Of a stretch of DNA of 64,000 nt, positions 9,654-63,009 are shown one piece after another. The translations under genes were made by a program, and so were the position numbers. Location: NCBI GenBank assembly GCA_039621445.1, contig CP154954.1, positions 5,557,919 through 5,621,918 on the forward strand, in the 5' to 3' direction. Below the pieces are notes generated by a model. That model made no database searches and had not been told where the DNA came from. It saw only the letters and a program-made list of their open reading frames with translations. Each line of letters begins with the position of its first letter. Position 1 is the first letter of the stretch. The DNA comes from Euglena gracilis (taxonomy: Eukaryota).

Positions 9654-9657
9654 CTGG

Positions 9658-33398: not shown

Positions 33399-33438
33399 TT
33401 GGCTCACTGACTTCGTCAGTGAGATTTTTTCAGATTCG

Positions 33439-37268: not shown

Positions 37269-37535
37269 GACAGCCGGGGTGGACCGTTGGGGGCGGGAGC
37301 CGCCCCGGGGTCGCATACCCAGCCCCACACAAAGACATACGCAAATCCCAGGTGGCATGAAAAATCTCGTGTGAGTGAAAACACGATGAAAAATCTGCCA
37401 TCCCAGGAGACCTTTGCGCAAGGTGTGTCCAGTGTGTCGGGTGCGTGTGTGCGTGACGTGCAAATCTGTGATTCAGCCCAAATCTGTAAAAAAACAGACC
37501 TCATAAGAGGTCGTGCACAGCCTTCCGTAAAGAAA

Positions 37536-38122: not shown

Positions 38123-38157
38123 CGTGTTGGAACGAAAAAGCGGATATCGTAGGGAGG

Positions 38158-41500: not shown

Positions 41501-43175
41501 GGCTGATGAAAAGGCTGCAAAGCAACTCAACCAAAATTGCAGCAAAAATTGTTCCACATGCCAAGCGAGTGTGAGGGGGGAGAGTTTGAAAGGACCGATC
41601 GAGTCCACACCCATACCCCCTGCACTAATGACAAGTGTTGCCATCGATTTGTTTCGAATGCCAAGGGTTTTACACGACGGGGGGGAGTATGACACCCTAG
41701 CCCTTTGTGTGGATAGGCATTCGGGTTGGATTGTGGGGGTTGCATGCAAGGACAAGGGATTAACCGGTGCCAAGTTGGCTAAGGAAATGGTGAAAAATCA
41801 GTGGAGGCCTTTTGGGGTTCCCTCGGTCATCTCAAGTGACCAAGGGAGCCATTTCACAAGCACTTGGTGGAAAAACATGTGTGCACTTTTGGGGATTAGA
41901 CAAGCGTATTCCCAAGCGTACCACCACCAAGCAAACGGGAGGGTTGAGAGAGCCGGACAACAGGTAATGGAGGTGTTGAGAAAATTGTACGTGGAGGAAA
42001 AAATTAATTGGGTTGAAGCTTTACCCCAAGTTTTGGACCGAATTCATGACGTAAAGGGGGAAAGCGGATTGAGCCCATATGAAATTGTGACTGGAAGGGA
42101 AAGACCATTAGCAGGGGTACCCTACCAACCGCCCAAAGAATGTGAGGATTCGGTGGAATTTTTCCGAAGGATGCAAGACCTTGATGGGAGGGTGGCTAGG
42201 ATACTCAACAAAAAGCATGAGGGGGAGATGGCAAGGATAAATAAGGGGAGGAAAGAAATGGAACCCCTAAAGGTGGGTACGACGGTTTGGTATAGGAGAC
42301 CCGAGGGGTCGGGTGAGAAGCTTGACTCTAGGTGGGTGGGACCTGGGGTCGTGAAGGGTAGAGAGGGGGAACGAAGTTATGTAATCGAAATGAAACCTGG
42401 GGTGGAGACAAAGGCTCATAGGAGTTTTTTGAAGGAGTATCGGGAACCCCAAGTTGAAGGTAAGGGGGTGCCTCTTTTTTATTATAAACGAACCGAAAAA
42501 GAAGAAGAGGCATTACCTGATGAGTGGGAGGTGGAGAAAATTCTAAGGCATCGGAAAGGAAAAGATGGAAAGTGGGAATTTTTAACCAAGTGGGTCGGAT
42601 ATGAGGACGGGGAGGAGACCTGGGAACCGGCTGGAAATTTTATTCACAGATTCAGTGGGGAGTTTGTAAAGTATTGTTGTGAGAAGAAAGTGAAAATGGA
42701 CATAATGTCCGAACTAAAAATTGATGGTGGGCCGTAGGCTCTAAGGTGAGCCATAAGGCCCTGTCCAAGGCTCTACAGTGAGCCCAATGGGAAGGCAAAG
42801 TGCTGTTTTTAAAATTCAAAAAACCGAATTTGCACGTCCGTGTGGGTGTGAGTGCACGCACACACGCATGAGCGTGTAAAGGAGAGAATGTACAAATGCA
42901 AGAATTGGCAAGGAGAATGGAAATTGGAGAAAAAGGCCCCGCAAGGGGGCCGGGGCACCTCAGCATATTCGCCGCCGCATTGCTGTTGTACTCGCCCCAC
43001 TGCGCTTATATTTGCACACCGCATTTATATTTGTACTTGTACTCGCCACACTGCGCCTATATTTGCCGTCCTCTCCTCTTCGCTCCCGGTGTTGTAGGTT
43101 TGGAGATTGATTCTTTGAGATGATGGGTTACATTGTGTTTGGGTGTTCTTGGTCACATAATGAGCCCCCCTTCGG

Positions 43176-43460
43176 TTTGGACAAAAATCCCCCCGGCCCG
43201 AGGAGGCGGGGGGGGCCCTTGAATTTTTAAAAATCCCCCGGCCCGAGGAGGGGGGGGGGGCGCGTTTGATTTTTGGACAAAAATCCCCCCGGCCCGAGGA
43301 GGGGGGGGGGGGCGCTTGAATTTTTTAAAATCCCCCCGGCCCGAGGAGGGGGGGGGCTCGATTTTTTGACAAAAATCCCCCCGGCCCGAGTGGGGGGGGG
43401 GGTGCCAACCGAATTTTTACCAAAATCCCCCGACCCGTTGGAAAGGGGGGGGGCAGATCT
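43176..43460 (+). repeat. About 42-bp tandem repeats (AAAATCCCCCCGGCCCGAGGAGGGGGGG) in the 3'UTR of copy 1
   Basis: About 5-6 imperfect units are directly visible. Confidence 0.9.
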
Positions 43461-43721
43461 TGGTGAAGACCCTCATTCCACCCGTGAGAAGCGGGGGGGG
43501 GGGGGCAGCCAAATAACCATTGGTTGGTGAACCGAATCTTTCCCAAGGGTGCGAAGGCACTTGAAAGCCATAGTCCCTGAATTTTGTTTCCCGTTTGGTT
43601 GGTTCAAGGGAATATGTGCGGGACATAGGCTTTGGGTGAAGGAGTGCCGATTGGAGGAGTTCCCCCCTCTTTGTTGAGGAAGGGGGGGGGGGGCGAATTT
43701 TTGGTGTCCGACTAAGGTCGC

Positions 43722-43732
43722 AAGGGAGGGGG
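43722..43732 (+). promoter_or_regulatory. PPT (AAGGGAGGGGG)
   Basis: Immediately before LTR2; the same tract precedes LTR3 at 55115-55125. Confidence 0.88.
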
Positions 43733-44541
43733 TGTCGGCCGCCGGCTTGCGCCGGCAGCCAAAAATTGCCAGAAAGCGCAAATTTCAAAGTCGCGGGTAA
43801 CAGCCAACCAGTTAAAAAAACCCGCGACTTAAATTGGAAGCGGGTCAAATTTCAAAGACCTTTCAAATTCTTTTTGTTCACAGAACTTGAGGGGTTTTCC
43901 CCATCATTTGGCAAAGAGGAAATACATTGAATTGGATTTGATCAATCACATTGTTGAATTGGAATTGGCAGTTACATTGTTGGTCATTGCATTGTTGGTG
44001 GAGTCATTGAAGGCAATTTGGTATTGAAATCAAGAAGGAGAACCTACAACACCACCCTCACCGCCACTTCTATTCCCTATACCCCTCTTCCTTGCCCCAG
44101 GTTGTTTTTTTCATCACATTCAGTCATTCTCACAGATTTCCAACAGTTTGATTGCTTCTCCAGTGGGTTGGGATTCATTTCAGCTTCAGTGGGTTGGTTT
44201 GTGGGTTGGTTTGTGCATGAGAGTGTGAGAGAGAGAAAGAGAGAAAAGTTCGATTTCATTGCAAATGGCAGATTTTTCGGTGTTCACCAAATTTTCAGAA
44301 AACATTAAAAAAACGATCCTACGCACCGGCTGGGGTAGGGGAAAACACCTGGGTGAAAAAAAGGGAGTTGGCCTGAGCCCACCAACCCCCAGAAAAAGCG
44401 CAGGCCCCGCCCCGGAAACACCCACCCCCCGGCTGTCGGTGGTTATCCACGACGGCGAGGACCCCCCCGGGCCCTCGGCCCACCGGGACTCGCCGGTCGC
44501 GGGGGCGACCGGCGGCGCAGCGGGGGTGGGGCCGGCGAACA
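43733..44541 (+). repeat. Family-B LTR2 (shared middle LTR, 809 bp)
   Basis: Preceded by a PPT and followed by a PBS (44542-44553). Lacks a 20-nt segment present in LTR1 and LTR3. Confidence 0.95.
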
Positions 44542-44587
44542 TGGTAGCAGAGGTTGGCTCACTGACTTCGTCACTTTTTCAGATTCG

Positions 44588-47500
44588 GTGAACGTCGTTG
44601 CAGAGATTTGTTCCGCTGCCTCTGCCAGCAGAATCAGTGCAAAGTTTTCAGATTCGGCTGAAATCACAAGCAAAGGTTGTTTCACTGACCCAGTCAGTGA
44701 AAATTTTTCAGAGACGGTCGACACGGTCACAGAGATTTGTTCTGGTGGCTGTGCCAGCAGAATGGTACACGAGGTCAATTTCATCAACCCTGTGGTCTGT
44801 GAATTTTCAGAAGAATCTGCAGAAATCTGCTCGTTTCCCAGTCAATCTGTCCGAATTTCAGATTGTGATGAAAATTTTCTGGGATCTGTGGCAGAAAGCT
44901 GTTTTCAGAACGAAAAGGAAACTGAATTTTCTGCAGCCCAGTTTTCAGAACCTGTGGCATCATTGCAAATCATGATGGAATCTGTGGCAGAAAACAATTT
45001 TCAGGCTGCAGAAACTTTATCGTCTTCAGAATTTTCAGAAACGACACAGGAATCAGAATCTGATTCTGATTCGGAGAGGGGGTTAATAACATGCATCAGG
45101 CCTGTCACGGTGGCAGGGCCAGAAAATTTACAGCTGATTCCACTGCATGGCAGTGACGACGAATCAGACCCCCCAGCTTACAAAAGCGAATCAGAGGAAG
45201 AAAAAGGAGCTGAAAACGCCATAATTCAGGAAATGGTTATACAGAGAATGAAAGCTGCTGGCATGTGGCCAGTAAATTTTTCAGGTTTTCAGCAAATTTC
45301 TGTGTCATCAGGAGACAGCAGCCCAGGGCCAGAACAAAAAATTTTGTGTTTAACAGCCCAGCCAGAACCATTGCTGTTAACACAGAGTTCAGAACCGCAG
45401 TCAGCACAGCCAGCTGCAGCCCAGCTGCAGGTTTTTCAGCCAGCCCAGCAGTTTTCGGCTGGGTCATCTGTTTCAGCAATCATGGGGCCAGCCCAGATGA
45501 CTTCACAGGTTTTTCAGCCAGCCCAGCAGTTTTCGGCTGGGTCATCTGTTTCAGCAATCATGGGGCCAGCCCAGACGACTTCACAAGTTTTTCACCCAGC
45601 CCAGCAGTTTTCGGCTGGGTCATCTGTTTCAGCAATCATGGGGCCAGCCCAGACGACTTCACAAGTTTTTCAGCCAGCCCAGCAGTTTTCGGCTGAGTCA
45701 TCTGTTCCAGCAATCATGGGACCAGCCCAGATGCATGGGCAGGTTTTTCAGCCAGCGTTAACAGTGTCTTCAAACACAGGCCCAGCCCAGATTTTTCAGC
45801 CAATTCAGCCAGATTTTCCACAGACCCAGCCAATAAATTTACAGCCAAACACCAGTTTTTCTGCAGAAACTGGGTCCGAAAATGCTGAAAATCAGCATGA
45901 TGTGGAAATGGAATCGGGCTATGGCCAATCTGACGATGATTGGAACAACTGGGGTGAAGAAATCAGTTGCAAAATTGAATGTTTACATGGCAGACTTTTG
46001 GTGCAGGAAGGAAAAAATCCTGAAAAAACGGCTGAAAATCTGGTGGGGGAGGCAGAAAACAGGCTAAATCAGGCATTGGCCATGTCACAGGGGCAGACAT
46101 TGAATCTGGTCAATGAGGCATTGGGCATGCATGATGGGCGAATGGCTGATCACATTGCCATGGTGAAACGTGAAATTCAGGCTGAACTGAGTGCAACTGT
46201 AAACGACTTGCTTTTGCAGTTTCAGCAAAATGGTGAAATGGTGCAAAATCTGGCCCAATGCCAAAGGCATTTGTTGAGTGTGGAAATGGAACGGCAGTTT
46301 GCTGAAAAAGTGAAGAAAGTGGAGGATGGAGTTAACTCGTTTTTTGAGGCCCAGGTTGAGGGGTTGAGAAAAAATGAGAGGGATTTTTCTCAGAAACTGT
46401 CGATTTTGGAAAAATCTGTGGGGGAGATGCACGTGGTGGTGAAACAAGTGGGGGAGAAGGAAAAACAGCAGGAAATTGCTGTTAATCAGGTCAAATCTGC
46501 AGTCGGTGAGCTAAGCTCTGGTCTGGAGGGACGCTTTGGGATCATTTTTCAGCAATGCAAAGGTTTGGGGGAGACTGAGTGTGCCAAATTTCAGGCGCAG
46601 GCTGAGAAATTGAAGGAATTTTCACAGTCCCTGGAGCGAGAGAGCAAAGCTCTGAATGATCGTTTGGGGAGGTTGGAGAATTTTCTGGGTCGGAAAGATT
46701 TTCCCATTGAGAAAGTCTGTGACCTGATTAACAAGAGTGAGGAAACAATTCGGTTGGAGGTGCAAAGGGAGTTGGGGCTGCAAACGAGAAAGAATTTGGA
46801 GGTCATTATCAGTGAAATGTTGCAGGAAAGGTTGAGGCTGAGTGAAAGGGAGGGGCAGTTTGAGAAAGTTCGGGCTGAAATGGAAAATTCGATGAAACAG
46901 CAGGTTGGAGTTTTACTGCAACAGCAGTCCAGTGAACTTTTTAAAGAACAGCAGGAGCGGAAAAAATTGCAACAAAAGCTGGATTTATTTCAGGCTGAGT
47001 TTTTGGTGATGAAAAATCAGCAAGCTGAATCTGCCAAATCTGCGACAGTGGATCTGACAAAGGAAACGAGAGAAAAATAAGCTGGAAACCCAGAAATCGA
47101 GGAGTTTGATCTTTTTGGTTACAACGATTTACCTGTGATCGAGAAAAATCCGGTTGAAATTGAAGGCTATGAATACGCTGAACCAGGGTCACATGCGACA
47201 CATGTCAGACAGGTTTGTGCACGACCTGTGGGGGCAGTGCCTGCAGGTGCAGGGCTGGTTTCATCAAATGCAGTGGCAACGCATCAATTGATGAAAAACC
47301 TGGTAGCTCCAAATTTTTCTGGACAGCCAAAAGACTGGTCGTCCTTTGTGCGGGATTGGGATCAATATTTCAGGACGTTGGTTATTTTGCAAAATGGACA
47401 TGTGTCTGATTCACTCAAGCTTCAGCTTTTTGCAATGACGCTGGACGACACAAATCAAAAGGAATTGCAATTCCGACTGGAATTGAACGGAAAAACATCT

Positions 47501-48580
47501 TTCGAGGAGGAATTTGACAGGCTTGAAGGGAAATATGCTGGAACTCAATCCGAGTGTGCCAGAAAAAAATGGTATGATGTGAACCTCGTGAACCAAGGGA
47601 AAATTACCGTACAGGAATGGCGAGATTTTGTCATAAATTTCAGAATAGCCTGGAGACAGGTGAAAAGCGCCACTGACGATGAGGCAGAAAGACTGGTCAA
47701 GGGAAAACTGCCAAATTTCATTTTGCATTGGGTCGCCGATGAGGAGGAAAGGAAATCAACGTGTGGACCGAAAGTCAAAATGTACCCTGGAGTGCCTGCA
47801 ACCGAGGAAAACATTATTTGTGCTGTGGAACGTGTCACTGGGGAAAAGCCCTGCAAGGTTTCGAAAGTTTCACCGCTGGAGTTCGAAGTCTTTTTGCCCA
47901 ACACTACGATTTGCGACAAACTGAAAGAGGTCAGTGGGAAACCAATCACAGGCACGGATAAAAGGATCAAAATTGTGGAGGAACAGCCAAAAATGGGAGT
48001 TGAAGAAATTTTCCGTTTTGTTGAGCGAAAATTGTCATCCAGGGATTCTCAAGACATGATACACAGTTCCAGGGAGCCAAATGCATTTGGAAACCGGAGG
48101 GCCAGGTCTGCTAAGGCAGATCGGGCCAAGGGGTCCAGGACACCCTCCCCAACACGGTCAGCAAAGGGGGGCGAAACGGTGGCAAAACCGTCCGTTGGAA
48201 AATCAGATTCACAGGTGGCAGCTCCTGCGACCAATGCAAACGTGAACCCCCCGTGCAAAATCTAGTGGCAGTGGTTCAATCACAGTCATTACCACCCCCC
48301 CCAGCAATCGCAATCTCAATTTGGCAATGGGGGGGGATGGAGAAACGATTCTGGGTGGAATTCCAATGCCAATGCCAATTTTCAGGGAAATCAGTGGTGG
48401 CACTCAAATCAACAGAATTTTGATTCACAGTCTGGTGGTGGCAAAGGCAAAGGCAAAGGAAAGGGCAAAGGAAACAATTCTTGGGGGAAAGGAAACAATG
48501 GAAATGACTGGTCTAGGGGAAAGGGCCAGGATGGTGGAAAAGGCAAAGGCAAAGGAAGGGGGAAAGGAAACCGTTGCTAG
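44588..48580 (+). pseudogene. gag: Family-B gag, copy 2
   Basis: 44588-47080 and 47135-48265 are in the same frame (TAA at 47078 is TCA in copy 1). Frameshift near 48250; TAG at 48578-48580. Confidence 0.88.
45428..45745 (+). repeat. 78-bp (26-aa) coding tandem repeat QVFQPAQQFSAGSSVSAIMGPAQxxx, four units
   Basis: Four units here versus two in copy 1 (about 34279-34435). Confidence 0.9.
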
Positions 48581-48847
48581 GATAGCCGGGGTGGACCGTT
48601 GGGGGCGGGAGCCGCCCCGGGCTCGCATACCCAGCCCCACACAAAGACATACGCAAATCCCAGGTGGCATGAGAAATCTCGTGCGAGTGAAAACACGATG
48701 AAAAATCTGCCATCCCAGGAGATCGCTGCGCAAGGTGTGTCCAGTGTGTCGGGTGCGTGTGTGCGTGACGTGCAAATCTGTGATTCAGCCCAAATCTGTA
48801 AAAAACCAGACCTCATAAGAGGTCGTGCACAGCCTTCCGTAAAGAAA

Positions 48848-49434
48848 AGAGCTTTAGACCTTTTTTGCGGTAAAGGCTCGGTTGGGGATTGCCTGAGAGA
48901 GCAGGGGTTTAAGGTTGTGTCAGTGGACATAAACCCCAGATTTAACCCAACCCACTGTGCAAATATTTTGGAGTGGAGATATTGGAGGTACCCCCCCGGA
49001 TATTTTCAGATCATCGCTGCGGGGGTGCCCTGTACAGAATATAGCTTGGCCAAAACATTGGGAGTCAGAAATTTGGAGGGGGCAGATCGGCTGGTCAAAA
49101 AAACTTTGGAGATTGTCGAATATTTCAAGCCAAAATTGTGGTGGATTGAAAATCCCCGTCATGGACTTTTGCGGAAAAGACCCTGTGTTCAAAATCTGAC
49201 TTTTGTCGATGTTGACTATTGTCAGTTTTCAGATTGGGGATATCAAAAGCCCACCCGAATCTGGGGGAGCGAAAATCTGAGCAAGCTACAAAACAAACTT
49301 TGTGATGGCCAGACCTGCCCGAATTTGATTCCTGGGGGGAGGAGTCACCGAGAAAAGTTGGGAGGATATGGAATGACAGTTGGCACCCAGAAAAAATGGA
49401 GGATGCCCAAACAACTGGTGGAGTATTTGTTAAC
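48848..49434 (+). CDS. C5-cytosine DNA methyltransferase domain of Pol (copy 2, motifs intact)
   Basis: LDLFCGKGS (FxGxG), GVPCTEYS, WIENP, QKPTRIW. Confidence 0.92.
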
Positions 49435-49469
49435 CGTGTTGGAACGAAAAAGCGGATATCGTAGGGAGG

Positions 49470-49856
49470 ATTATGCTGTTAGGAAAGTTTGTATGGAGGA
49501 AATTGAGAAGGAATTTCGGGTTAAGGCGGAACGGGATTGTTTTGCAACCAGCCAAAATACCAGGTGTGAAAAGTTTTACGGGGAGGATGATGATGCCATG
49601 AAAAAGGATTGGGGGGCGGAGGAAACGTTGTGGATGAACCCCCCCTGGACTTTGTGGCCTGAGGTGGCTGAAAAATTGCAAAATTCCAATTGTCGGGCGA
49701 TTTGTATTTGCCCAGACTGGAATAGGAGGTGGGTGAAAAATCTGGTGGCTATGGCTGTCAAAAAGATTTATTTTCCCAAGGGGACAAAGTTGTTTGAGGC
49801 TGATGGGAGGATTTTGAGGGGTACCCGTTGGGGGGTGTGGGCCTTGTTGATCGATA
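49470..49856 (+). CDS. Dam-like N6-adenine methyltransferase domain of Pol (copy 2)
   Basis: DCFA and WMNPPW (NPPW at 49637-49648), ICPDW. Confidence 0.88.
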
Positions 49857-52800
49857 GAAGGCAACCCTCCCAGGGGGGGGCAACCCCAGGGAAGAAAAAA
49901 TTGGTTCGGCTGAAAAAAAGAATGTTGAGGGGGACAAAAACTCGGGGAGGAGCAAAGAAACTCGGGGAGGACAGACAACTACTGGTGAAAACCCAGATTA
50001 GGTTGGCAAATGGGGAGGAAAAAACGGCCAGAATTTTGATTGACACGGGGGCGGAGGCAAACCTCATTCGACAAGGGTTGATAGGGGACCACCTAATGTA
50101 TCCTGCTAAGGACCCGTTAAGGTTTGAAACTGCCAATGGGCAAAATTTGGCGGGGGGGAGCAGATGTGCTAAGGTGAAAATGATCCTTCAACAAAATTGG
50201 AATGAGGAAAGGGAAATTGAGTGTGTGGAATATGAGGTTGAATTTTATGAGGCAAACATCAAAGTTGATGCCATTCTTTCTTATCCATGGTTGGCGGAGG
50301 CAAAACTGGGAATTTTTCCACACCACAAGGCGTTGGTGAAAGACAGCCCCGACCTGATTTTTTTGCGGGGTGTTGAAAGACGGAGGGGTCCGCAAAAATT
50401 CAGGGATGACACAAATTTTTCAGTGGACAATGTGACTGTGGCGGACGGGTCTTCGTTTGGGTTGCAAAAACTTGGTCTTTGTTTGCCATTGGAAGGGTTG
50501 GACCAGGAATTGCAATTTTTGAGTGATGAGGACCTGGGGGAGGTTGCCACAAATTTGGAGGGAAGTGACCCCCCAGTGCAAGTTATCAACCGAATGATAA
50601 TTGCAAGGGAGGGGGAGGACAAAAAAGAGGAGGAACGGGTAGTCAAGTTGAGGGAACAAGTTTTGGAAGATTACCGGGGGACGGTATTTCGGTCATCGCC
50701 ATTTCCAGACCCCCCCGAAAGAGGACAATATGGTTATGCATACATACCTTTGAAGGAGGGGGCAAAGCCAACCAGACAGAAGCCTTTTTTCATGCACGGT
50801 GAGCGGAAAGAGGCACTTGAAAAAATCACACAAGACTGGCTCGACAAAAAATACATTGAGCCAGCCACAGCCAAAAATTCTGAATGGCTGTCCCAGACTT
50901 TTCCAGTTCCAAAAAAATCCAACGATTTTCCTTGGAGGGGGGTGGTGGACCTCAGGGGCCCAAACAGCCAAACAAGGCGATGCAACTACCCCCTACCCAA
51001 AATTGAAGACATTTTGGTCAAACATGGTGCAAACCAAATGTTTTCGATCATCGATTTGAAGCAAGCTTTTCACCAACAACCTTTACACCCAGAAAGTCGA
51101 CCCATAACGTGTTGTTTTACCCCCAAAGGCATTTTTCAGTGGAGGGTGAACGTAATGGGTTTGACAAATGCCCCCCAGCAATTTCAGCAAATGATCGATG
51201 ACCGTTTGACACCAGTAAGGGATATCGCCACAGGGTACATAGACGACATACTGGTGGGGACAACGGTCGGGGAAGGGGAGGACCTGGTGGGGGCACACGA
51301 AAAAGATTTGAGGAGGGTGTTGGAGGTGCTCAAAACAGAACTTTTGGTGGCTGATGAATTCAAAGCCAAACTTTTTGTGGAGGAGGTTGAATTTTGTGGA
51401 CAAATTTTAGGAAACGGGACTAGGAGGCCTGCACCGGGTAAGTTACGAGCGATCGAAAAGTGGGAGGTTCCAAAAACAATTACGGCTTTGAGAGCCTTTT
51501 TGGGATTCACAAATTATTACAATGCATACATTCACATGTATGCGGAAGTAGCTGCCCGGTTGCAAGACAAATTGAAAGTCCCCAGGGAGGTGGGAAAGAA
51601 AGGAAGTCGAAAACCTGTGGAATTTGATGGGGAGGATTTAAAAGCTTTTGAGGAGCTGAAAAAAAGGTTGTGTTCGGGCCTAATGTTGCAACGGGTAGAC
51701 CCAGATAAACCCTTTGTGCTAAGGGTTGATGCCAGTGGGTACGCCGTGGGGCAACGTTAGAGCAAATGAAGGAGGGGGGAGGAAGACCCACAGCCCAGGA
51801 TGTGATTGAGAAAAAAACTGTGCCAGTGGCTTTTATGTCTCGAAAATTGACCGAGGGGCAAAGAAAATGGACCCCCAGGGAGTTGGAGACGTACGCCATA
51901 ATTTTGGCACTACAAAAATGGGAGAGTTGGATTGGATTGCAACCCGTTTTGGTTTTAACCGACCACCAAAGTTTGGAGTCTTGGACAAGGGAAGTCCTAG
52001 ACACCCCCAGTGGTCCGGTTGGGAGGAGGGCGAGATGGCATCAAATTTTCTCCAAGTATGCATTGACGGTGGGATATATCCCGGGTAAAGAAAATACCAT
52101 AGCGGATATCCTTAGTCGGTGGGCATACCCAGCTTCACAGGCCCTAAGGGATATAAGTAAGCACGGGTCAGCCGAAGACAAGGATGAAATGGAAAATTTT
52201 ATCCGGGAGGAAAAAGAAGAGGAAAAACAGTGTTTGGAGATAAGAATCAAAAACCAGCCCAATTTACGTAATGCCTGGATACGGGGGGTGACAACCCGTA
52301 GTGGCAAAAACGTAACACCTGAGGAGGAAAAAGGAGAGTGCACAAGGAGGGGAACCGAGGGTGGGGTAGACCCAGGAGGAAAAGACACCCCTGTGGACAC
52401 CCACTCACAAGGGCCCAGGAAAGAAAAGAAACGAGTTCATTTTTGGGATGAGAAAGTGGGGGGGGAGACGACCCCTGTCCCGGAGACGGCTGAAAGTTCG
52501 AGGGGGGACACTCGTATGGAAGTGGGGGACGCCCTGCCAAGTACGACCCCTAAGGATATTAAGCCCGTATGGGAGCGTGATTGGGGGGAAGCATATTCCC
52601 GATGCCCCACATGGAAAGAAAAATGGGTAGCTACCAAAGGCGATTCAATTTGGCCAAAGGGTTTCAAAGTGCTAAATGGCCAATTGTTTTTCGAGGAAAA
52701 GTTGTGTGTGCCTGAAAGTTTTCAACACTTGGTGATTCAAGAAATTCACGAGTTTTTGGGGCACGTTGGCCCTGAAAAAGTTTGGAAACACATGGCAATC

Positions 52801-54507
52801 CGTTTTGTTTGGGCTGATGAAAAGGCTGCAAAGCAACTCAACCAAAATTGCAGCAAAAATTGTTCCACATGCCAAGCGAGTGTGAGGGGGGAGAGTTTGA
52901 AAGGACCGATCGAGTCCACACCCATACCCCCTGCACTAATGACAAGTGTTGCCATCGATTTGTTTCGAATGCCAAGGGTTTTACACGATGGGGGGGAGTA
53001 CGACACCCTAGCCCTTTGTGTGGATAGGCATTCGGGTTGGATTGTGGGGGTTGCATGCAAGGACAAGGGATTAACCGGTGCCAAGTTGGCTAAGGAAATG
53101 GTGAAAAATCAGTGGAGGCCTTTTGGGGTTCCCTCGGTCATCTCAAGTGACCAAGGGAGCCATTTCACAAGCACTTGGTGGAAAAACATGTGTGCACTTT
53201 TGGGGATTAGGCAAGCGTATTCCCAAGCATACCACCACCAAGCAAACGGGAGGGTTGAGAGAGCCGGACAACAGGTAATGGAGGTGTTGAGAAAATTGTA
53301 CGTGGAGGAAAAAATTAATTGGGTTGAAGCTTTACCCCAAGTTTTGGACCGAATTCATGACGTAAAGGGGGAAAGCGGATTGAGCCCATATGAAATTGTG
53401 ACTGGAAGGGAAAGACCATTGGCAGGGGTACCCTACCAACCACCCAAAGAATGTGAGGATTCGGTGGAGTTTTTCCGAAGGATGCAAGACATTGATGGGA
53501 GGGTGGCTAGGATACTCAACAAAAAGCACGAGGAGGAGGTGGCAAGGATAAATTAGGGGCGGTTAGGAAAGGAACCCCTAAAGGTGGGGACGACGGTTTG
53601 GTATAGGAGACCCGAGGGGTCGGGTGAGAAGCTTGACTCTAGGTGGGTGGGACCTGGGGTCGTGAAGGGTAGAGAAGGGGAACGGAGTTATGTAATTGAG
53701 ATGAAATCTGGGGTGGAGACGAAAGCTCATAGGAGTTTTTTGAAGAAGTATGGGGAACCCCAAGTGGAAGGTAAGGGGGTGCCTCTTTTTTATTATAAAC
53801 GAACCGAAAAAGAAGAAGAGGCATTACCTGATGAGTGGGAGGTGGAAAAAATTCTAAGGCACCGGAAAGGAAAAGATGGAAAATGGGAATTTTTGACCAA
53901 GTGGGTCGGATATGAGGACGGGGAGGAAACCTGGGAACCGGCAGGAAATTTCATTCACAGATTCAGTGGGGAGTTTGTGAAGTATTCCCGTGAGAAAAAA
54001 GTGAAAATGGACATAATGTCCGAACTTAAAATTGACGGTGGGCCATAGGCTCTAAGGTGAGCCATAAGGCCCTGTCCAAGGCTCTACGGTGAGCCTAATG
54101 GGAAGGCAAAGTGCTGTTTTTAAAATTCAAAAACCCGATTTGCACGTCCGTGTGGGTGTGAGTGCACGCACACACGCATGAGCGTGTAAAGGAGAGAATG
54201 TACAAATGCAAGGATTTGCAAGGAGAATAAAAAAAAAAAAAAAAGGCCCCGCAAGGGGGCCGGGGCCACCTCAGTATATTCGCCGCCGCATTGCTGTTGT
54301 ACTCGCCCCACTGCATGCTGCACTTATTTGTACTGTACTCCCCCACTGCGCTTTATTTTGTCACCGCGTATATACCCCACTGCGCCTATATTTGCCGTCC
54401 TCTCTCTCTCTCTCTCCGGTGTTGTTGTAGGTTCGGAGATTGATTCTTTGAGATGATGGGTTACATTGTGTTTGGGTGTCCTTGGTCACATAATGAGCCC
54501 CCCTACG

Positions 54508-54860
54508 GTTTGACAAAAAATCCCCCCGGCCCGAGGAGGGGGGGGGGCACTTGGATTTTTAAAATCCCCCCGGCCCGAGGAGGTGGGGGGGCGCTTGATT
54601 TTTTGACAAAAATCCCCCCGGCCCGAGGAGGGGGGGGGGGCGCTCGATTTTTTGAAAAAAACCCCCCCGGCCGGGGGGGGGGGGGGGGGGGGCGCTAGAT
54701 TTTTTGACAAAAATCCCCCCGGCCCGAGGAGGGGGGGGGGGCGCTTGATTTTTTGACAAAAATACCCCCGGCCCGAGGAGGGGGGGGGGGCGCTCGATTT
54801 TTTGACAAAAATCCCCCCGGCCCGAGGAGGGGGGGGGGCGCTCGATTTTTTGACAAAAAA
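54508..54860 (+). repeat. About 42-bp C-tract/G-tract tandem repeats in the 3'UTR of copy 2
   Basis: About 8 units are visible. Confidence 0.9.
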
Positions 54861-55125
54861 ACCCTCATACCACCCGTGAGAAGCGGGGGGGGGGGGCAGC
54901 CAAATATTCATTGCTTGGTGAACCGAGTTTTTCCCAAAGGTTCGAAGGCACTTGAAAGCCATAGTCCCTGAATTTTGTTTCCCATTTGTTGAATCAAGGA
55001 AGAATGGGTGTGGGACATAGGCTTTGGATGAAAGAGTGCCGAATGGAGGATTTCCCCCCCATTGTTGAGGAACGGGGGGGGGGGGGCGAGTTTTTGGTGT
55101 CCGACCAAGGTCGCAAGGGAGGGGG

Positions 55126-55953
55126 TGTCGGCCGCCGGCTTTCGCCGGCAGCCAAAAATTGCCAGAAAGCGCAAATTCCAAAGTCGCGGGTAACAGCCAA
55201 TCAGTTAAAAAAACCCGCGACTTAAATTGGAAGCGGGTCAAATTACTTTGCGCTTTCAAATTCTTTTTTTTCACAGAACTTGAGGGGTTTTCCCCATTTT
55301 TTGGCAAAGAAGAAATACATTGAATTGGATTTGATCAATCACATTGTTGAATTGGAATTGGCAGTTACATTGTTGGTCATTGCATTGTTGGTGGAGTCAT
55401 TGAAGGCAATTTGGTATTGAAATCAAGAAGGAGAACCTACAACACCACCCTCACCGCCACTTCTATTCCCTATACCCCTCTTCCTTGCCCCAGGTTGTTT
55501 TTTTCATTACATTCAGTCACTCTCACAGATTTCAAACAGTGTGATTGCTTCTCCAGTGGGTTGGGATTCATTTCAGCTTCAGTGGGTTGGTTTGTGGGTT
55601 GGTTTGTGCAAGGGAGTGTGAGAGTGAGAAAGAGAGAAAAGTGAGATTTCAGAAAGAAAAGTTCGATTTCATTGCAAATGGCAGATTTTTCGGTGTTCAC
55701 CAAATTTTCAGAAAACATTGAAAAAACGATCCTACGCGCCGGCTGGGGTTGGGGAAACCACCTGGGTGAAAAAATGGGGGTTGGCTTGAGCCCACCAATT
55801 CCCCGAGAAAGCGCAGGCCCCACCCCGGAAACACCCACCCCCCTGCTGTCGGTGGTTATCCACGACGGCGAGGACCCCCCGGGCCCTCGGCCCACCGGGA
55901 CTCGCCGGTCGCGGGGGCGACCGGCGGCGCACAGGGGGTGGGGCCGGTGAACA
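55126..55953 (+). repeat. Family-B LTR3 (828 bp)
   Basis: TGTCGGCC...GAACA followed by the ATGG TSD; closest to LTR1. Confidence 0.95.
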
Positions 55954-55957
55954 ATGG

Positions 55958-58900
55958 TCGTGGGGGTATCTCCTCCACTTCCATGTCGACATCCGGTCTA
56001 GGAGGTTGATCCTCCACAACCGCTGGCGCAGGTACTACGGGAGGTTGATCCTCCGCTGTAGCTGGTGCGACAGATGGCTCTGTCGGCTGGGGTTCATCCC
56101 CTGAAGATGGTTGCACTGCTGCCGGAGATGGGGGTGCGGGGACACCGACATCTGGTGTCTCCACGACCTCGGCGGCGGAGCTTGATGCTACGCCTCCACC
56201 TCGTGGCGTTAGTGCAGCAGCCACGGCAGTAATGCCGGTGACGACGGCGCCGAGCACACGGCCTTCTAATGAGGTGCGTGCTGCGGGGCTGGTAGGTTCT
56301 TCGAGGATATCCTCGACGACCATACCAGTCACCTCGGCTGGAGGCTCAGCCGTTGGAACAGGCGTAGCAGCCCCAGGTATATCCCCTGCGGGTGCTTCGT
56401 CTGGCCTAGGCTGTGCCAGAGTAGGCAGAGCAGCGTAGAGGATATCCTCCACGTTCTCACCTACCTCCTCAGGAAGTTCCTGGTCTCCACCTACCGGTGG
56501 ACAGACGGAAGCCGCCGCGGGAGCCGGGGAAACCGATCATTCTCCTGCCGCTCGAGGGGCAGAGACGAAGGATACAGCCGTTCCTGTCGGAGACGGCGGC
56601 GCTGCCTCTAGAATGGTGACGGAGGGGCTGCGGTCGCGTACCTCCCGCCGCGGAATCGCGGTGGTGGAAGCGACTGACGCCTCCCGTCTCCTTCGCGCCA
56701 GAGGTTCATCCTCTGGGGCGATGAAGGCGCGCAGATCCTCGGGCGAACGAGGACCGTCGGGGTGCCATCGACATCCCTGAGCGTCCGCCAGCCTGTAAAA
56801 TGCCAGCGTACTGCTGCTGGCGCTGTTGGGCCAGGGTGGCGGCCATGATGGCTGCACCCAGGCGTTGGCAGGCCTGTTCGCGCCCAGGAAGCTGCGGTAA
56901 CGCGTGTCTTCCCAGACCTCGAAAAGCCCTCCTCGAACTCCTGAACGCATGCCAGAATCGGCATACGCTGTTCGAGGATGGCCTTCGGGTGACACATCAG
57001 CGGAAGGAATACCTCCCGGTTGAGGGTACCGCCAAACTGCCGCCGCAAATGTTCCTCCAGGCTGCTATCAGCCAGGTGCCAGTTGGGGCGCAGGTGGCCG
57101 AGAATCTGACGACGAGGACCCTCGATGGCGTCACCGTAATCCGGTGGCAGGCTTTCCATTCCAGGCCTATCGTCCTGGGGATCACGGAGATGTATATACA
57201 CCTCCATGACTTAGGTGGTCCAGGCTCGCCACCAGAACTGCTGCAGCATAAAAATACGCTGCTTGTGGACGCGGCGACTTCTGCCCCGGACATCCGGGGC
57301 GTCGCGGCACACACGCATAAGCATGTGGCGTCCCATCTCCAGGCCCGGGTTATCCCGAGGCGGTGGAGGACTTCCGGGCACGCCGAATCCCCAGAAGTCG
57401 ACAGGAAATTCCTGCCGGCAGTACTTACAGCAGAGGTCATACCTCTGCGGGTAAGCCAGGGAAACGCGCTTAACGCGGAAGGTGGAGCCGTAATGGTTCA
57501 CCAGCCACACCTGGAGGTTGTTGCACCACAACACCTCGATCAGGCGTTCGACGCCGGGATGTAGTGGGTAGAATTCCCACTGCACGCCGAGGGGTCCGAC
57601 TGTATGAATACAATCGAAGTAGGCCTTCAGCCTCCGGGCCAACACATGCTGGTCCCGTAATCCCAACTGGTGCAGGTAACTGCGACCAGTGGAATCGCTG
57701 AAGAGACCCCAGTTCTGGCAGGGGTATCCCAGCCAAAACCAGAGCTCCCAGAAACCCGGCTGGGCATCCAGCAAGGGTCTGCCACCTTCACCTTCGAAGC
57801 CGTACAGATCTTTTCCGTAAGGGAATAGTCTGACTCGGTTCTCGGTGTGGCGTAATACCACATCGATGACTGCCTGTGGAGGAGTGACGGGGCGGTTTCC
57901 TGCAACATGGTAATCATGCTGCATTCGCCAGCCTTCGTCCTCCAGCTCCTCCTTGAACCTGAGCATATGCTCAAAGTCCGAGAGGACTTCTGCTGGTTCC
58001 TCTTCTTCCTCACGTGCTGTTCCCTTACCTTTACCCTCACCCTTCCCTTTGCCGGCCACGCCTTTGCCTTCTCCCTTGCCTTTGCCCTCGGCCCTGCCTG
58101 TGTCCTTTCCCGTCTGGCGAATACCAGAGGGTCGGGCGCTCGGTGCCGCAGGAGTCGGTTCGGTTCCTTCCCATTCCATCTCTGGGGAGGGACCTGGCCG
58201 CTCCGCTGCACGTCGCGGTGATGGCGTGGCTGGGCGTTGGCTAGGAGTCTGGCGTGGGCTTGGCTTCGACGCAGGGGGTCGCGGCTCCTTCCATACCGGA
58301 GGGATTGGCGGTGGCATTGCGGCAACAGGACGGCTCATCGCCACCTGTGCCTCCGGTGGTCGTCCAGCCGGGGTATCCTGGCTGGCTTCCACCTGCATTG
58401 CCACACCGCCGTCCGCGTCCCGTGGGCTGGGTCGCCTGGGTTGTGTGGAAAGGTTCTCCGTAGTCCTGTCGCGCTTCAGGGTGGCAGGTAATGCTGCCAC
58501 ACCTGCCGGGGGCTCACCGGGTAATACCGGGGTTGCCACCCGCAGCTGCGGCTGGTACGGATGTTAGGGGGTGTATCCACGGCCCTGAAGGGCAGCCAGA
58601 GAGGAGTAATACCTCGTCCGGTGCTCTTCAGACGCGAATACTGGCTCCTGCAGGAAGTGCCGAGCAAGCTCATCCTGCTCGGTTCCCGGAGGTGCCATGT
58701 GATAGTAGGGAGTCTCCTGCCGACGGGGGATATCCCCAGTCTGGACAGGAGCTGCACTGGGCGGTCGGGCTGCCTCACGGTGGGGAGGTTCATCCACCAC
58801 CACTATGGGCTCCGCCTGCCGCCGTGGCTCAACGCCAGGGGCAGGGGCGACCGGTGATGCCTGTGACATGTGTTGGACGTATGCCTCAGGGGGCACGTCC

Positions 58901-59640
58901 GACTGTCCGGCCGGGAGCACGCGTGCGCCGCGCGGGTAATCCGCGTGCGTCGCGTACCGCGAGACAAATTGCTCCGCTGGCGACTCGCGCGGCGGCATTC
59001 GCTGCGGCGAGAGCGGGCGAGCAAAAATTCTCGTCATCCCAGGTGGGACATGCACAGCCTCACCTACCGGTGGGGGCGTGTGCTCACGCATGTGCACGGT
59101 GTGGGATCCCACCGGCGTCTGCGTTTGCAGCATGGGCGGCACATACACGCCCAGGTCCATCATTGTCTCGCCAGGCTCGAATCAGGAATCGGATGCCGAC
59201 GAGAAATACCGTCTCCCCGTCATCAGGGCTTGACCACAGGGACACCACTGAGCCACCGGGGTGTTGGCTACCACCAACAACTCAGCACAGTACGCATCCC
59301 AAAGGGCTTGCATAAAGGGCTCCGTTGGGGGGTGTGCGCACATACGCATCGCCCGCTCCAACGTCTCCGTAGTGCGGAAGATCATCTCTCCCGCATACGG
59401 GGGCAGGCGCGATCTGCGCTGCGCTGGTGGCTGAGGTGCCGGCTGCTGGACGGCAGATGGATCTGGTACCGCATATGCTGACCGGCTGCTGGTAGCCGCG
59501 GCGAATACCGGGGCTGAAACCCTCTCAGCATGTGGGGCACCCGAAATCGGGGCCTCAGCATACTGAGGGTACTGGGGGTATGGCGCGCCAGAAGGCTGCG
59601 GCCATGGTGGACCTGGTCCAGGTCCGCGCCCAGGCAGCAT
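55958..59640 (-). pseudogene. N-terminal and central part of family-D ORF3 (conserved domain 1)
   Basis: ORFs 59182-59640, 58564-59163, 57211-58539 and 56608-57207 are all in one frame, separated by stops. One frameshift leads to 56537-56995 and 55856-56452. Confidence 0.82.
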
Positions 59641-59836
59641 GATGCTACCCGAACGACGACGACAACCAAGGGTAACCTTGTTGTCAGTCGCTGTGAGTGC
59701 TGGTGCACTGAAAAAAAGTAGGCTTCTATCTTAATTAAAAACTCTGCGAGAAAGATAGAGAAAGAAGGAAGTGCAGGGGGGGTATAAACGCGAAACATTC
59801 ACATAAAACACACGCATTCTCCAAAACGAAATCGTT

Positions 59837-62800
59837 TCAGAAAGTGTTTATGTTTATGTCTATGTGATTGCGCTTGTTCCACAGCTTCCAATCCTGCTGG
59901 ATATATCCAACAAAACTGGATGCTGGCTCCCAAGTGTCCTCCTCTGGCCCATACCCTTTCCAACGAACTTTCCAGTAGTGCACACCCCTGTCGACCTTGT
60001 GGTCTATTATCCTATCGACCACAAAATCGTCCGTTTCAGGTAATCTGGAACGGGGCTTGAAATATAGGCAGGGGATAGCTTTTCCGTCTGAGGGGCTTAG
60101 GTACGGTTTGAAGTCGTCCATATGGACGTCCTCAATCCCGTTGGGCAAGGCAACTTTATATCGCCCGCTACTACCTAACCTCTCCAATATTTCGCATGGG
60201 CCGAGCCAAAGAGGATCTAGCTTGGAAGATTGCATGCGGGTGCGGTTATTCCGTACCCACACGCGGTCACCTGGACTATACACAGGTGTGTTTAAGTTTT
60301 GTAAAAACGATTTCCGTTTGTTGGAATGAATTTCTGTGTTACGTGATTGGACTGCAGAGCGGAGTGATTCCACTTCTGCAAACCACGTTTCACAGCTGAC
60401 GCTACTTCGGGCATGTCTCTCCGAGGGGATATCCCCTATGGCCGGAGGGTCTCGTCCGAAAACAATTTTGTACGGTGAGTGTGGTAATACCAACCCTGGC
60501 AAGGTACTGATGTAAAACAAACACCAGTGAAGAACGGATAAACAATTCTTACCCGAGTCAGCCAGTGAAAGGCGAAGCATATTGACAACGGATTTCACGG
60601 CTGCCTCGGCTCTATCATTGCCTTTTGGGCGGTATATAATGGAAAAATGCTGCTCAATGCCGAGTAAACCGCACAAAGTTGTGAAAAACCGCGAAGAGAT
60701 CAAGTGATCTTGATCACTCACGATTTCGTTCGGTAAACCCATTAAGCAGATACAACAAAAACGTAACCGTAAATTTTGTCATCTGATCCTTTGCAAGGTT
60801 CAAGTTCGAGAAAATACATGCAGAGGGACGTAAAAATGTCTGGTGGTACGGGGAAAAAGTCCATCGTACCAGGGGGGGTACCTCTGCGCGGTTTCACAGC
60901 CTGACAAATTTGGCACCGTTGCGAAATTCGCAAACAGCGCGAATATAAATCTTTTACACTCAGGGTTGTGCAACATCTGCGACCCACTCGTGAAAGAAGT
61001 TTGGGGGCCCCAGGGTGACCATGGTTGTGATAGCTGAAAATCACATCATCAACCAGGTCTTGGGGTATACAATATTTATAACCAGAATCATTCCGGAAAA
61101 TAAGCCGCAATGGTGATAGAGAGTAATTCTCTATAGATTCACCATTTACGAAGTTTATTCACAATGGTACTATATATAGGGTCACGCGAATAATCCCATT
61201 CGCGGAAAAATAGGGGGGTAGGAGTTTCCGTACGCGTAATGCGACGGGGTCCGGCAGTGCGTCCACGCCGGCGCCTTCCACGCAATGGTGAAATGGCGAT
61301 GCTGCGATATACCCGGGAAACGGGTAGTGAATCGAGCATGTTGTCCGCAGCGTCGGATCGACGTGCGAACTGGTCAGCCTCATGGCTGCCATGAAAAGTC
61401 GCATCACCCTCATCCGGGTTCCCAGGATAATACCAGGGGGCTCGGCTGAGAGGATTCGCAACTTTTTGCGTGTGACCTGGGGTATAGATAACCACCAGGT
61501 TAAACTGGCTCAAGAACTCATGCCATCGGCATCTTCTGCCCACTGATGACATGGCCTTGTTCAGGTCCTCGGTATACCAGTGTTGAAGGCTCTCATGATC
61601 CGTCAACACAAGTATCTGGACCAAGCTGCTGGCTATCCAGCTGCGGAATTGCTGGAGAATAAGCACAATGGCATATGTCTCCTTTTCGCGAATGCTCCAT
61701 TTAACCTGTCCTTTCCCGTTGTCGCCCTGTAGCTTCCTGCTGAAGAAAGCCACAGGTCGGAGGTCATTCGCCGCATTATGCAGGCTAAGAACCCCGCCAA
61801 CAGCGTAATCGCTGCTGTCGACTTCCAGGACATACAGCTTGTATGGATCCGCGATATCGAGAACCACGTTCTCGAGCAGCAAGTCCTTGATTTTATTCAA
61901 GGCCTCGCACATTTGGTCATCCCAAATGACTTTTGCGTTATCGGGTGTCCGATTTTTGAGTTGTCGGGTTAGGGGTACCCCGATTTTCGTGAAATCTTTC
62001 GTGTAAATCGCGTAATATTGGGCTAATCCCAAAAATACCTTTAAATGCGTTAAGGTCTTAATGACCTCAGGAGTCCATTTCTTAATGGCCTCCATCTTAC
62101 TGGGTGCGGCTTTACGCTGCCCGTTGCTCAGGATATGCCTGCAAAACTTAATAATTTTGCGGAACAGGTACATTTTGGAACCCTTCACAAAAAGCACATG
62201 CTTTTGGAACGCGGATAATACCGCCCGCACATCGCGATAATGCGGTTCGAGGATATCCTCGCCCGATTTCGCGGATGGCGGTTGGGTTCCCACCAGTACA
62301 TCATCGATGTACACCAGAGCAAACGGTAAATCGCGCAAAACCCACTGGATCATGCGTTGAAACATGGCTGGGCCATTCTTAACACCCATGGGGAGTACCG
62401 TCCGTTGGTACACACCCTTGGATGTCACGAATGCCGTGTACGGTTGCGAATCAGGATGCAAATGCATCTGATGGAAACCGTCTTCCAGATCAAAGATTGA
62501 CCACAACCGGTTATCCGATTGTCTGGTGATCAAATCCTCGATCACCGGTAACGGGAAGGGGTCATCCTTCGTTTGTGAGTTCAGGTACCGGTAATCCAGC
62601 ACTAGTCTCCACTTCTTCTGACCAGACTGGTCAGCTGGTTTGGGCACCACAAAAGCTTGTGATGTCCACTCGCTCTTGGAAGGGATAATCCACTTCCGCT
62701 GGATGAGCTTCTCAATCATCTCGTTGAGAGCTTGTTCGCGTTCACCCGAACAACGGAAGAATTTCCGGTGCATGGGTTTAGCGCCATCCTTGAGCTCGAT

Positions 62801-62849
62801 TTTGCAAACACCGAACGGGCCGTGAATCGCGGGGTCGATGTCGCAGGCT
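59837..62849 (-). pseudogene. pol: Family-D pol core: RT, RNase H, integrase, chromodomain (frameshifted)
   Basis: WRLVLDYR, FDLEDGFHQ, YIDD; VDSSDYAVG, LTDHES; HNHGHPG...[21 protein letters not shown]...[15 protein letters not shown]. Confidence 0.94.
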
Positions 62850-63009
62850 TAAACTGGGTTATCCAGTACACCATGGAATTCGCGAGTAATTCGCGAACAA
62901 TAGTCAGCAGACTTGGGGTGTTGGTCCGCACTCTCAATGACCGCAGAAATCTGCGTTGAGGGTGTGGCCTCCCCATTGGTACCAAGGTATCTTGGCACAC
63001 GCAAATCGG

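Follow-up and report, generated by a model that had tools for sequence, protein, structure and literature searches.

What kind of element places two different DNA methyltransferases (MTases) ahead of the protease and reverse transcriptase of its polyprotein, and what might it use them for? The question is raised by a 64,000-nucleotide stretch of the Euglena gracilis genome (GenBank assembly GCA_039621445.1, contig CP154954.1, positions 5,557,919 to 5,621,918 of the forward strand; this whole stretch is called the window below, and all positions refer to it), in which the pol gene of a long terminal repeat (LTR) retrotransposon at 48581-54048 encodes a C5-cytosine MTase module (C5) followed by a Dam-like N6-adenine MTase module (Dam). 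From our analyses we conclude that the element is very probably a Euglena chromovirus of the EpiLTR type, the name given to LTR elements with a DAM, a DNMT and a chromodomain in Euglena gracilis and Cymbomonas tetramitiformis (Fernandez-Moreno et al., bioRxiv 10.64898/2026.05.21.726589, May 2026; hereafter the preprint, cited from the accessible parts of its text). For the locus as a whole, an EpiLTR-type chromovirus with a two-module Pol and a proposed methylation of its own complementary DNA (cDNA) is on balance the best explanation. That cDNA self-methylation is the function of the modules is a more tentative proposal.

Both modules lie in one uninterrupted open reading frame (ORF), as originally predicted: it runs from stop to stop over 48581-51760 and encodes 1059 amino acids (aa) in the standard code, the predicted start at 48599 lying just inside it. 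Its translation contains every motif that had been named (FCGKG, PC, ENP and KPTR for the cytosine enzyme, DCFA and NPPW for the adenine enzyme). The further domains predicted for this pol, namely protease (PR), reverse transcriptase (RT), RNase H (RH), integrase (IN) and chromodomain, were found by Pfam searches, PR by weak matches and the last three domains only past a frameshift and an in-frame stop. The parts of this pol are as follows.
48581-54048, plus strand: pol of copy 2, open over 48581-51760, shifted in frame near 51740 and interrupted in frame by a stop at 53554-53556
48833-49450, plus strand: compact C5 module, pol aa 85-290 (Pfam, PHROG, AlphaFold2 (AF2), Foldseek, VIA, phage match, motif conservation)
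49463-49870, plus strand: Dam module, pol aa 295-430 (Pfam, TIGR01712, phrog_111, AF2, VIA, NPP conservation)
50009-50179, plus strand: aspartyl protease with DTGA (weak Pfam matches to Asp_protease_2 and gag-asp_proteas)
50909-51406, plus strand: reverse transcriptase (RVT_1, E 4.3e-18)
51793-52059, plus strand: RNase H (RT_RNaseH, E 7.9e-17)
52708-53235, plus strand: integrase with H2C2 zinc finger (Integrase_H2C2, E 5.4e-7) and catalytic core (rve, E 8.2e-11)
53836-53958, plus strand: chromodomain with three aromatic residues in EWEV, TKW and TWE (Chromo, PF00385, E 8.2e-11)

The C5 module is a compact, phage-type enzyme that is almost without a target-recognition domain. The prediction of a compact C5 MTase in Pol was upheld by PHROG, a family profile, predicted folds and conservation. 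Its motifs lie at aa 95-99 (FCGKG), 150-151 (PC), 190-192 (ENP) and 223-226 (KPTR) of the ORF. Two DNA-methyltransferase families of PHROG match it (phrog_363, E 1.2e-12; phrog_757, E 1.4e-10), and in a profile built from 108 relatives motifs I, IV and VI line up with those of DNMT1 (FSGCG, PPCQ, ENV); a phmmer search of the PDB with the single C5 sequence gave weak matches (best E 0.27). An AF2 model of pol aa 80-440 has a mean predicted local distance difference test (pLDDT) score of 92.5, and every PDB match that Foldseek listed for the C5 part is a C5 DNA methyltransferase, with probability 1.00 for DNMT3A, DIM2, M.HhaI and DNMT1. The independent VIA search placed C5 MTases at all of ranks 1-16 (Z 10.6-14.7), led on alignment by DNMT3B (Z 14.7, 199 residues aligned, root-mean-square deviation 3.9), DNMT3A (14.6) and M.HhaI (13.8), and the model aligned structurally across residues 10-324 of M.HhaI. 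These PHROG, Foldseek and VIA matches to C5 enzymes are far beyond chance.

Conservation was read from an alignment (A1) of 108 sequences, in which the relatives stand at 40-60% identity. Key positions are nearly fixed (F95 in 94/98, G97 in 94/97, P150 in 101/102, C151 in 98/102, E190 in 98/102 and R226 in 99/102), and at least 96% of about 100 relatives keep the motif-I Phe and first Gly, D116, P150-C151, E190 and K223-P224-T225-R226. The same holds for a Cys-Cys-Cys-His set, C214, C241, C246 and H256, which belongs to the roughly 45 residues that occupy the place of the target-recognition domain. Textbook C5 MTases, with M.HhaI as the comparison, have ENV as motif VI, QxRxR as motif VIII and GN in motif X; motif VI here is ENP.

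The C5 module has full-length relatives among phage genes. In tblastn searches the 206-aa module aligned across 95-98% of its length at 27-30% identity (best E 2e-15), and of the 35 phage records with a match, 30 align over 80% or more of it. One such gene, OP947164.1 1505-2275 (256 aa), is 27% identical to the module by pairwise alignment and has motif I, the catalytic Cys, ENP, KPT and a Cys/His-rich insertion in common with it, with LC at the place of the element's PC. These compact phage enzymes, which include a 'putative C-5 cytosine-specific DNA methylase I' of Bacillus phage BCP8-2, have about 220-256 aa and resemble the module in this respect; unlike it, they are stand-alone genes, unfused to Dam or Pol. 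BCP8-2 and the other phage matches are known from the tblastn table alone, with the identity and coverage just given. Sequences of solved eukaryotic DNMTs match the module far more weakly than the phage genes do. The preprint places the EpiLTR DNMT as sister to eukaryotic DNMT4, and its methods, in the accessible text, name only eukaryotic representatives for the DNMT tree. Because of this, of the end-to-end phage match and of the weaker eukaryotic matches, a phage-type origin of the C5 module may be regarded as a live alternative to the DNMT4-sister placement. The idea that both modules were captured jointly from one phage found no support: at the two phage loci inspected, of the 35 matching records, no annotated Dam stands beside the compact C5 gene.

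Next in Pol comes a module of about 140 aa, an N6-adenine methyltransferase of the phage type (PF05869), and here too the prediction of a Dam-like enzyme after the C5 domain held. DCFA lies at aa 319-322 and NPPW at aa 353-356; PF05869 (Dam) matches copy 2 with 40.2 bits (E 3.5e-10) and copy 1 with 41.3 bits, both above its cut-off of 28.1, phrog_111 of PHROG matches as well, and the AF2 model of the module has a pLDDT of 93.6. Among about 35 relatives the NPP triplet is well kept (N353 in 31/35, P354 in 35/35, P355 in 34/35), in agreement with the report that Asn-Pro-Pro is nearly universal (bioRxiv 10.64898/2026.05.21.726589). By comparison with about 100 relatives, both modules appear to hold their catalytic signatures almost without variation. 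We consider both modules probably catalytically competent in intact copies.

The element around this pol has LTRs with a target-site duplication, a primer-binding site and polypurine tracts, the Pol order PR-RT-RH-IN and a chromodomain C-terminal to the integrase, as a chromovirus should. Self-blastn and direct reading show 32558-55953 to be one Ty3/gypsy chromovirus insertion arranged as LTR-internal-LTR-internal-LTR, its two internal regions being called copy 1 and copy 2. Apart from the pol of copy 2, it consists of the following.
32554-32557, plus strand: left target-site duplication ATGG (direct reading; the same four bases follow LTR3)
32558-33386, plus strand: LTR1, 829 bp, TGTCGG...GAACA (self-blastn, sequence, pairwise identity)
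33387-33402, plus strand: primer-binding site beginning TGGTAGCAGAGG, abutting LTR1 (sequence; a second copy at 44542 follows LTR2)
33202-35703, plus strand: ORF0 of copy 1, rich in coiled coils and interrupted by a single stop at 34057-34059 (without a Pfam match)
35781-37268, plus strand: gag of copy 1, 495 aa, with a Gly/Lys-rich tail and a TAG end in frame with pol (ORF scan)
37269-42737, plus strand: pol of copy 1, in the same layout of C5, Dam, PR, RT, RH, IN and chromodomain (ORF scan, Pfam)
37521-38138, plus strand: C5 MTase of copy 1, FCSKG variant (ORF scan, Pfam)
38151-38558, plus strand: Dam of copy 1 (ORF scan, Pfam)
43720-43732, plus strand: polypurine tract abutting LTR2 (sequence)
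43733-44541, plus strand: LTR2, 809 bp, common to both internal regions (self-blastn, sequence, pairwise identity)
44357-47080, plus strand: ORF0 of copy 2, 907 aa open, in the frame of gag and pol (ORF scan)
47081-48580, plus strand: gag of copy 2, disrupted near 48246-48310, with a TAG end in frame with pol (ORF scan, contigs)
55113-55125, plus strand: polypurine tract abutting LTR3 (sequence)
55126-55953, plus strand: LTR3, 828 bp (self-blastn, sequence, pairwise identity)
55954-55957, plus strand: right target-site duplication ATGG (direct reading)

All three LTRs (809-829 bp) begin with TGTCGG and end with GAACA, that is, with TG...CA-type ends, and the primer-binding site after LTR1 and LTR2 begins with TGG, which we take to resemble the 3' terminus of initiator tRNA-Met. 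Pairwise alignment gives 98.9% identity between the two outer LTRs and 95.4-95.5% between LTR2 and either of them (95.4% for LTR1). The internal regions are 97.4% identical across 9.2 kb (self-blastn), a figure that rises to 99.1% in the MTase region. The three-LTR array may have arisen by recombination of two related elements rather than by plain duplication. Tandem-repeat arrays with 45-53-bp units lie in the 3' untranslated part of each copy, at 43136-43451 and 54513-54887, and differ in copy number (5 and 6 overlapping placements of the repeat finder, respectively).

The same layout had been predicted at 37269-42737, and the ORF scan and Pfam bear this out for copy 1, with two frameshifts at about 38950-39320, motif I as FCSKG where copy 2 has FCGKG, and a PF00385 match of E 8.2e-10 compared with 8.2e-11 in copy 2. 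Over a compared 1680 nt the two copies differ at 15 places, by six synonymous and nine nonsynonymous changes, none of them in the Dam module, and the ratio of nonsynonymous to synonymous changes (pN/pS) is uninformative. Contigs from four public runs disagree with the window at four defects of copy 2: the stop between ORF0 and gag, the first indel in gag (48246, covered in three of the four runs), and the frameshift and the stop in pol. Since the covering contigs read otherwise at these places, the defects of copy 2 look private to this copy.

In copy 2, ORF0, gag and pol share one frame and are separated by single stops. Neither the gag of copy 1 nor the ORF0 of copy 2, with its coiled-coil-like part and 26-aa repeats, matched any Pfam family above threshold. 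The repeat is a 78-bp tandem unit, present three or four times at 45428-45883 (three overlapping placements of the repeat finder) and once in copy 1 (34279-34578). Place 47079, within the ORF0/gag stop at 47078-47080, has a different base in every contig of three small runs and in nearly all contigs of a DNA run (X1), so that gag may be a giant protein, about 1400 aa long, that includes ORF0. The gag/pol TAG is retained in both copies (37266-37268 and 48578-48580), with gag and pol in the same frame.

Transcriptome and read data bear on the element as well. An intact transcriptome ORF, P0243 (EukProt EG_transcript_113, 1540 aa), encodes Dam-PR-RT-RH-IN-chromodomain; the pol of copy 1 is 97% identical to it across 100% of its length, which suits Euglena gracilis as the most likely host. 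P0243 begins at a Met just ahead of the Dam module, without a C5 module, and its chromodomain has a 24-residue internal duplication. A contig of run X15, whose type we guess to be RNA, spans 48823-49821, across both modules, with six differences in 999 nt. Contigs of an RNA library (X20) covered 28 of 30 bins of the element and left two uncovered, which is weak evidence of transcription, since such libraries can contain DNA. Copies of the family are numerous: in X1, 90,185 contigs match it, and for 21,409 of these the identity is at least 99%. Of the 127 transitions that separate the two copies, 32 are of the CpG type, with CpG positions making up 6.2% of bases, and the observed/expected CpG ratio is 0.56-0.59 in the two C5-bearing elements. 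This transition excess and CpG depletion fit a CG-methylated genome, or cytosine methylation of the element. In an element of the window with Dam as its only MTase (59837-63532) the ratio is 1.02, as compared with 0.56-0.59, an anecdote with one element of each kind.

The window holds further chromoviruses with MTase modules, one of them with the modules in the opposite order.
9530-15263, plus strand: second, divergent chromovirus family, with Dam, then C5, PR, RT, RH, IN and chromodomain (ORF and domain search)
about 9671-9868, plus strand: Dam of this element, with NPPF (domain search)
about 10214-10786, plus strand: C5 of this element, with a frameshift near 10345-10396 (domain search)
59837-63532, minus strand: third chromovirus, its sole MTase Dam-like (PF05869, E 5.3e-5; Pfam)
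The Dam of the second family is 35% identical to that of the main element, and its C5 is 34% identical in the N-terminal part and 50% in the C-terminal part. Upstream of it lies a 426-bp direct repeat (7938-8363 and 9231-9654, 99.5% identical), and a JGI metagenome protein, P0170, looks near-identical to its N-terminal part by eye in a second alignment (A2). The third element has HPPP where the main element has NPPW.

Variation in module order extends to the relatives. A phmmer tally over 360 fetched relatives, a set picked by similarity and thus biased, found both modules in 57 and in at least six positions within Pol: PR>Dam>C5 in 11, C5>Dam>PR in 10, C5>PR>Dam in four, Dam>C5>PR in three, and PR>C5>Dam and Dam>PR>C5 in two each; 12 full-length relatives carry C5 without Dam. 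Six uninterrupted polyproteins from unrelated assemblies have the order C5>Dam>PR>RT>RH>IN, with a chromodomain also in P0245, P0246 and P0248, and three uninterrupted polyproteins of 1763-1911 aa have the order of the main element. An exhaustive profile-free search returned 3675 representative clusters at E <= 0.001, of which 260 reach E <= 1e-30; where a source was given for the representatives, it was nearly always a metagenome assembly. We tentatively suggest that this mini-MTase, roughly 210 aa long and marked by ENP, KPT and a Cys3-His set in the place of the target-recognition domain, is phage-type and no offshoot of a eukaryotic DNMT, that it forms a mobile cassette with the phage-type Dam, and that the cassette's occurrence in at least six Pol positions across a large, mostly environmental chromovirus radiation may reflect repeated strong selection for both activities. 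Such selection would act on the replication complex, and is suggested because two opposite orders occur within 40 kb of one Euglena chromosome.

The remainder of the window contains other repeats. At 1-1903 (minus strand) lies an inverted partial copy, covering RT and RH, of an element that shares about 90% identity with the main one. A repeated minus-strand family has long coiled-coil-like ORFs at 17097-18789, 22260-24190 and 27345-29862, with identities of 95.7% between 22984-23674 and 27465-28154 and of 91.6% between 23671-24216 and 29088-29613. Two minus-strand ORFs, 5751-6788 and 57211-58563, have a motif-rich stretch in common (FW..WFW.G.P.QN...) and possibly represent a further repeat or gene family; the latter sits in a block of 61% G+C (56000-60000) just beyond the element. 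Rfam at gathering scores gave no match across the 64 kb, and a tRNA scan found no genes.

How well does a methylating, two-module chromovirus withstand the evidence that does not suit it? Several observations weigh against it. The original prediction had proposed two profiles as a check: PF05869 passed, as stated above, and PF00145 (DNA_methylase) was borderline, with 20.5 bits in copy 2 and 22.7 bits in copy 1 against a cut-off of 22, the match spanning just positions 4-118 of the 324 in the profile; relatives reach 25-29 bits. Motif VIII of the C5 module, QKPTR, matches QxRxR in its last Arg alone, and motif X is without GN, a conserved K/R-x-P-x-x-L-V helix standing at that place. The Dam module scores 36.8 bits (E 2.6e-9) with NCBIfam TIGR01712, below the equivalog cut-off of 97.05, which suggests that it is related to the phage enzyme yet not its equivalog, and its top structural match is an RNA cap adenosine methyltransferase, PCIF1, and no DNA enzyme. 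Both copies in the window are broken by frameshifts or stops, copy 1 also being without the first glycine of motif I. In some relatives PR stands between C5 and Dam, so the modules need not act as a unit. A GC-rich hairpin lies 3' of the gag TAG, but its stability does not exceed that of shuffled versions (59 of 200 equal or surpass it; z -0.54), and a read-through signal is therefore not claimed. Eukaryotic DAMs expressed in dam-deficient E. coli did not raise 6-methyladenine (6mA), and the expression of LTR elements in E. gracilis is low or undetectable (both bioRxiv 10.64898/2026.05.21.726589). The accessible text of the preprint gives no domain order, size or coordinates for its Euglena elements, and the comparison with them is therefore one of type rather than of family.

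Some of these points would suit modules that are catalytically dead and persist as nucleic-acid- or chromatin-binding domains or as slowly decaying passengers, namely the negative heterologous assays of other eukaryotic DAMs (bioRxiv 10.64898/2026.05.21.726589) and a C5 module that has neither a normal target-recognition domain nor GN in motif X; the degenerate variants in the window, HPPP for NPPW in the third element and FCSKG in copy 1, point the same way. We nevertheless regard this as unlikely. The catalytic Cys and Glu, the motif-I glycines and NPP are kept in 81-100% of about 100 (C5) or 35 (Dam) relatives at 40-60% identity, and such conservation is hard to explain without selection on chemistry; moreover, phage homologues of like compact size have the same features, and the modules have been retained despite repeated reshuffling in Pol. 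That the architecture itself is an artefact, with nested insertions or assembly chimeras joining unrelated MTase genes to a chromovirus, deserves mention since the preprint warns of both in E. gracilis and the window is densely packed with pieces of transposons. It is effectively refuted, and we give it next to no weight: both modules share one uninterrupted 1059-aa frame with PR and RT, the layout recurs in the second copy and in the six uninterrupted polyproteins from unrelated assemblies, three of them with a chromodomain, P0243 joins Dam to PR, RT, RH, IN and chromodomain in a transcriptome protein, and the X15 contig crosses both modules.

The remaining alternative is that the modules methylate RNA, be it the genomic RNA, the priming tRNA or the hybrid's RNA strand, and not DNA, which would alter how the transcript is packaged or sensed or how stable it is. 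The fold of the Dam module lends itself to this: its top structural matches are the PCIF1/CAPAM cap-adenosine N6-methyltransferases (Foldseek E 4.3e-5), and rRNA adenine methylases (KsgA, Erm, DIMT1) take up a large share of the Foldseek and VIA lists alike. The VIA values, however, are middling and their rows, less than 1-2 Z apart, are near ties, with PCIF1 at 10.8 (129 of 146 residues aligned) closely followed by T4 Dam at 9.1 and E. coli Dam at 9.0, and in sequence the module falls in the phage DNA N6-adenine MTase families PF05869 and TIGR01712. DNMT2-type tRNA methylases likewise match the C5 module, at VIA Z 10.5-11.1, but its best matches are the DNA enzymes DNMT3 (14.7) and M.HhaI (13.8), and the phage genes that match it over its full length carry DNA methyltransferase annotations. 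Related ideas are in print: an RNA:DNA hybrid substrate was raised to explain the negative E. coli assays (bioRxiv 10.64898/2026.05.21.726589), and RNA methylation was raised for SymbioLINE-Dnmt (PMC5890265). Taken together, we hold RNA as the substrate to be improbable, somewhat more so than dead modules, and retain DNA methylation by an EpiLTR-type chromovirus as the preferred explanation.

The original prediction had presented an LTR family that fuses both MTases with a chromodomain as new to its author. This did not survive, as the combination of DAM, DNMT and chromodomain is already catalogued in the same species as EpiLTRs (bioRxiv 10.64898/2026.05.21.726589); a literature search on Euglena LTR elements and methyltransferases found nothing further relevant beyond that preprint. 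Its background statements, Dam-like domains in DIRS elements and C5 MTases in dinoflagellate and charophyte retrotransposons, agree with the accessible text of de Mendoza et al. 2018 (PMC5890265), which cites the former and reports DNMTs from Symbiodinium (in LINE and DIRS elements) and from Klebsormidium (in a Gypsy element). Its suggestion that the element pre-marks its cDNA is the same putative hypothesis that the preprint discusses, and methylation of their own cDNA had been proposed for DNMT-bearing retroelements before (PMC5890265).

The E. gracilis EpiLTRs are the nearest known system, with the same host, the same set of DAM, DNMT and chromodomain in an LTR element and the same proposed logic of 5-methylcytosine (5mC) plus 6mA. 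They differ from the element in the window in that their DNMT is placed as a DNMT4 sister, whereas the module found here matches compact phage MTases end to end, and two opposite module orders in one window go unmentioned in the accessible text of the preprint. The Cymbomonas tetramitiformis EpiLTRs are likewise chromovirus-like LTR elements with DAM, DNMT and chromodomain, but have the DNMT at the 3' end of pol, whereas both modules here lie 5' in pol, ahead of PR. The preprint also reports DAM domains in non-DIRS LTR elements and infers that DAM-LTRs captured DAM from DIRS-like elements. The Dam-like domains of DIRS elements are PF05869-type adenine MTases too, on another backbone and without a C5 module. 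KnitGypsy-Dnmt3 of Klebsormidium nitens resembles the element as a Gypsy element with a C5 DNMT inside Pol, under purifying selection; unlike the compact, phage-like and Dam-paired module of the window, that DNMT is DNMT3-type, and Dam and chromodomain are unmentioned in the accessible text (PMC5890265). SymbioDIRS-Dnmt3 and SymbioLINE-Dnmt share with it the retrotransposon DNMT, a trans-splicing host with near-default CG methylation and the hypothesis of cDNA self-methylation, and SymbioDIRS has two coexisting domain orders (PMC5890265). Their backbones are those of tyrosine-recombinase DIRS and LINE elements without an adenine MTase, in contrast to the Ty3/gypsy element with DDE integrase and chromodomain described here.

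If cDNA self-methylation is indeed the function, a possibility that we advance with caution, the cycle of the element could run as follows. Pol would be produced through read-through of the gag TAG, and both modules would be packaged with RT, either as a di-domain or after protease cleavage. They would then methylate the new cDNA or the RNA:DNA hybrid, before or at integration. According to the preprint, 5mC is the near-default state of CG sites in the Euglena genome, whose 6mA is found on a subset of active genes. New copies carrying CpG 5mC would thus not be conspicuous as foreign, and those also carrying 6mA would remain transcribable, while the chromodomain would direct integration to chromatin with methylated histones.

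What this study adds is a fully dissected Euglena example with exact coordinates, together with three leads: a cytosine module that looks phage-derived like the adenine module, opposite module orders in neighbouring families, and a large environmental family. The broader point is already in print (bioRxiv 10.64898/2026.05.21.726589, May 2026), namely that retrotransposons with writers of both 5mC and 6mA and a reader of histone marks may bring an epigenetic toolkit of their own to the integration site, and would not just suffer silencing by the host.

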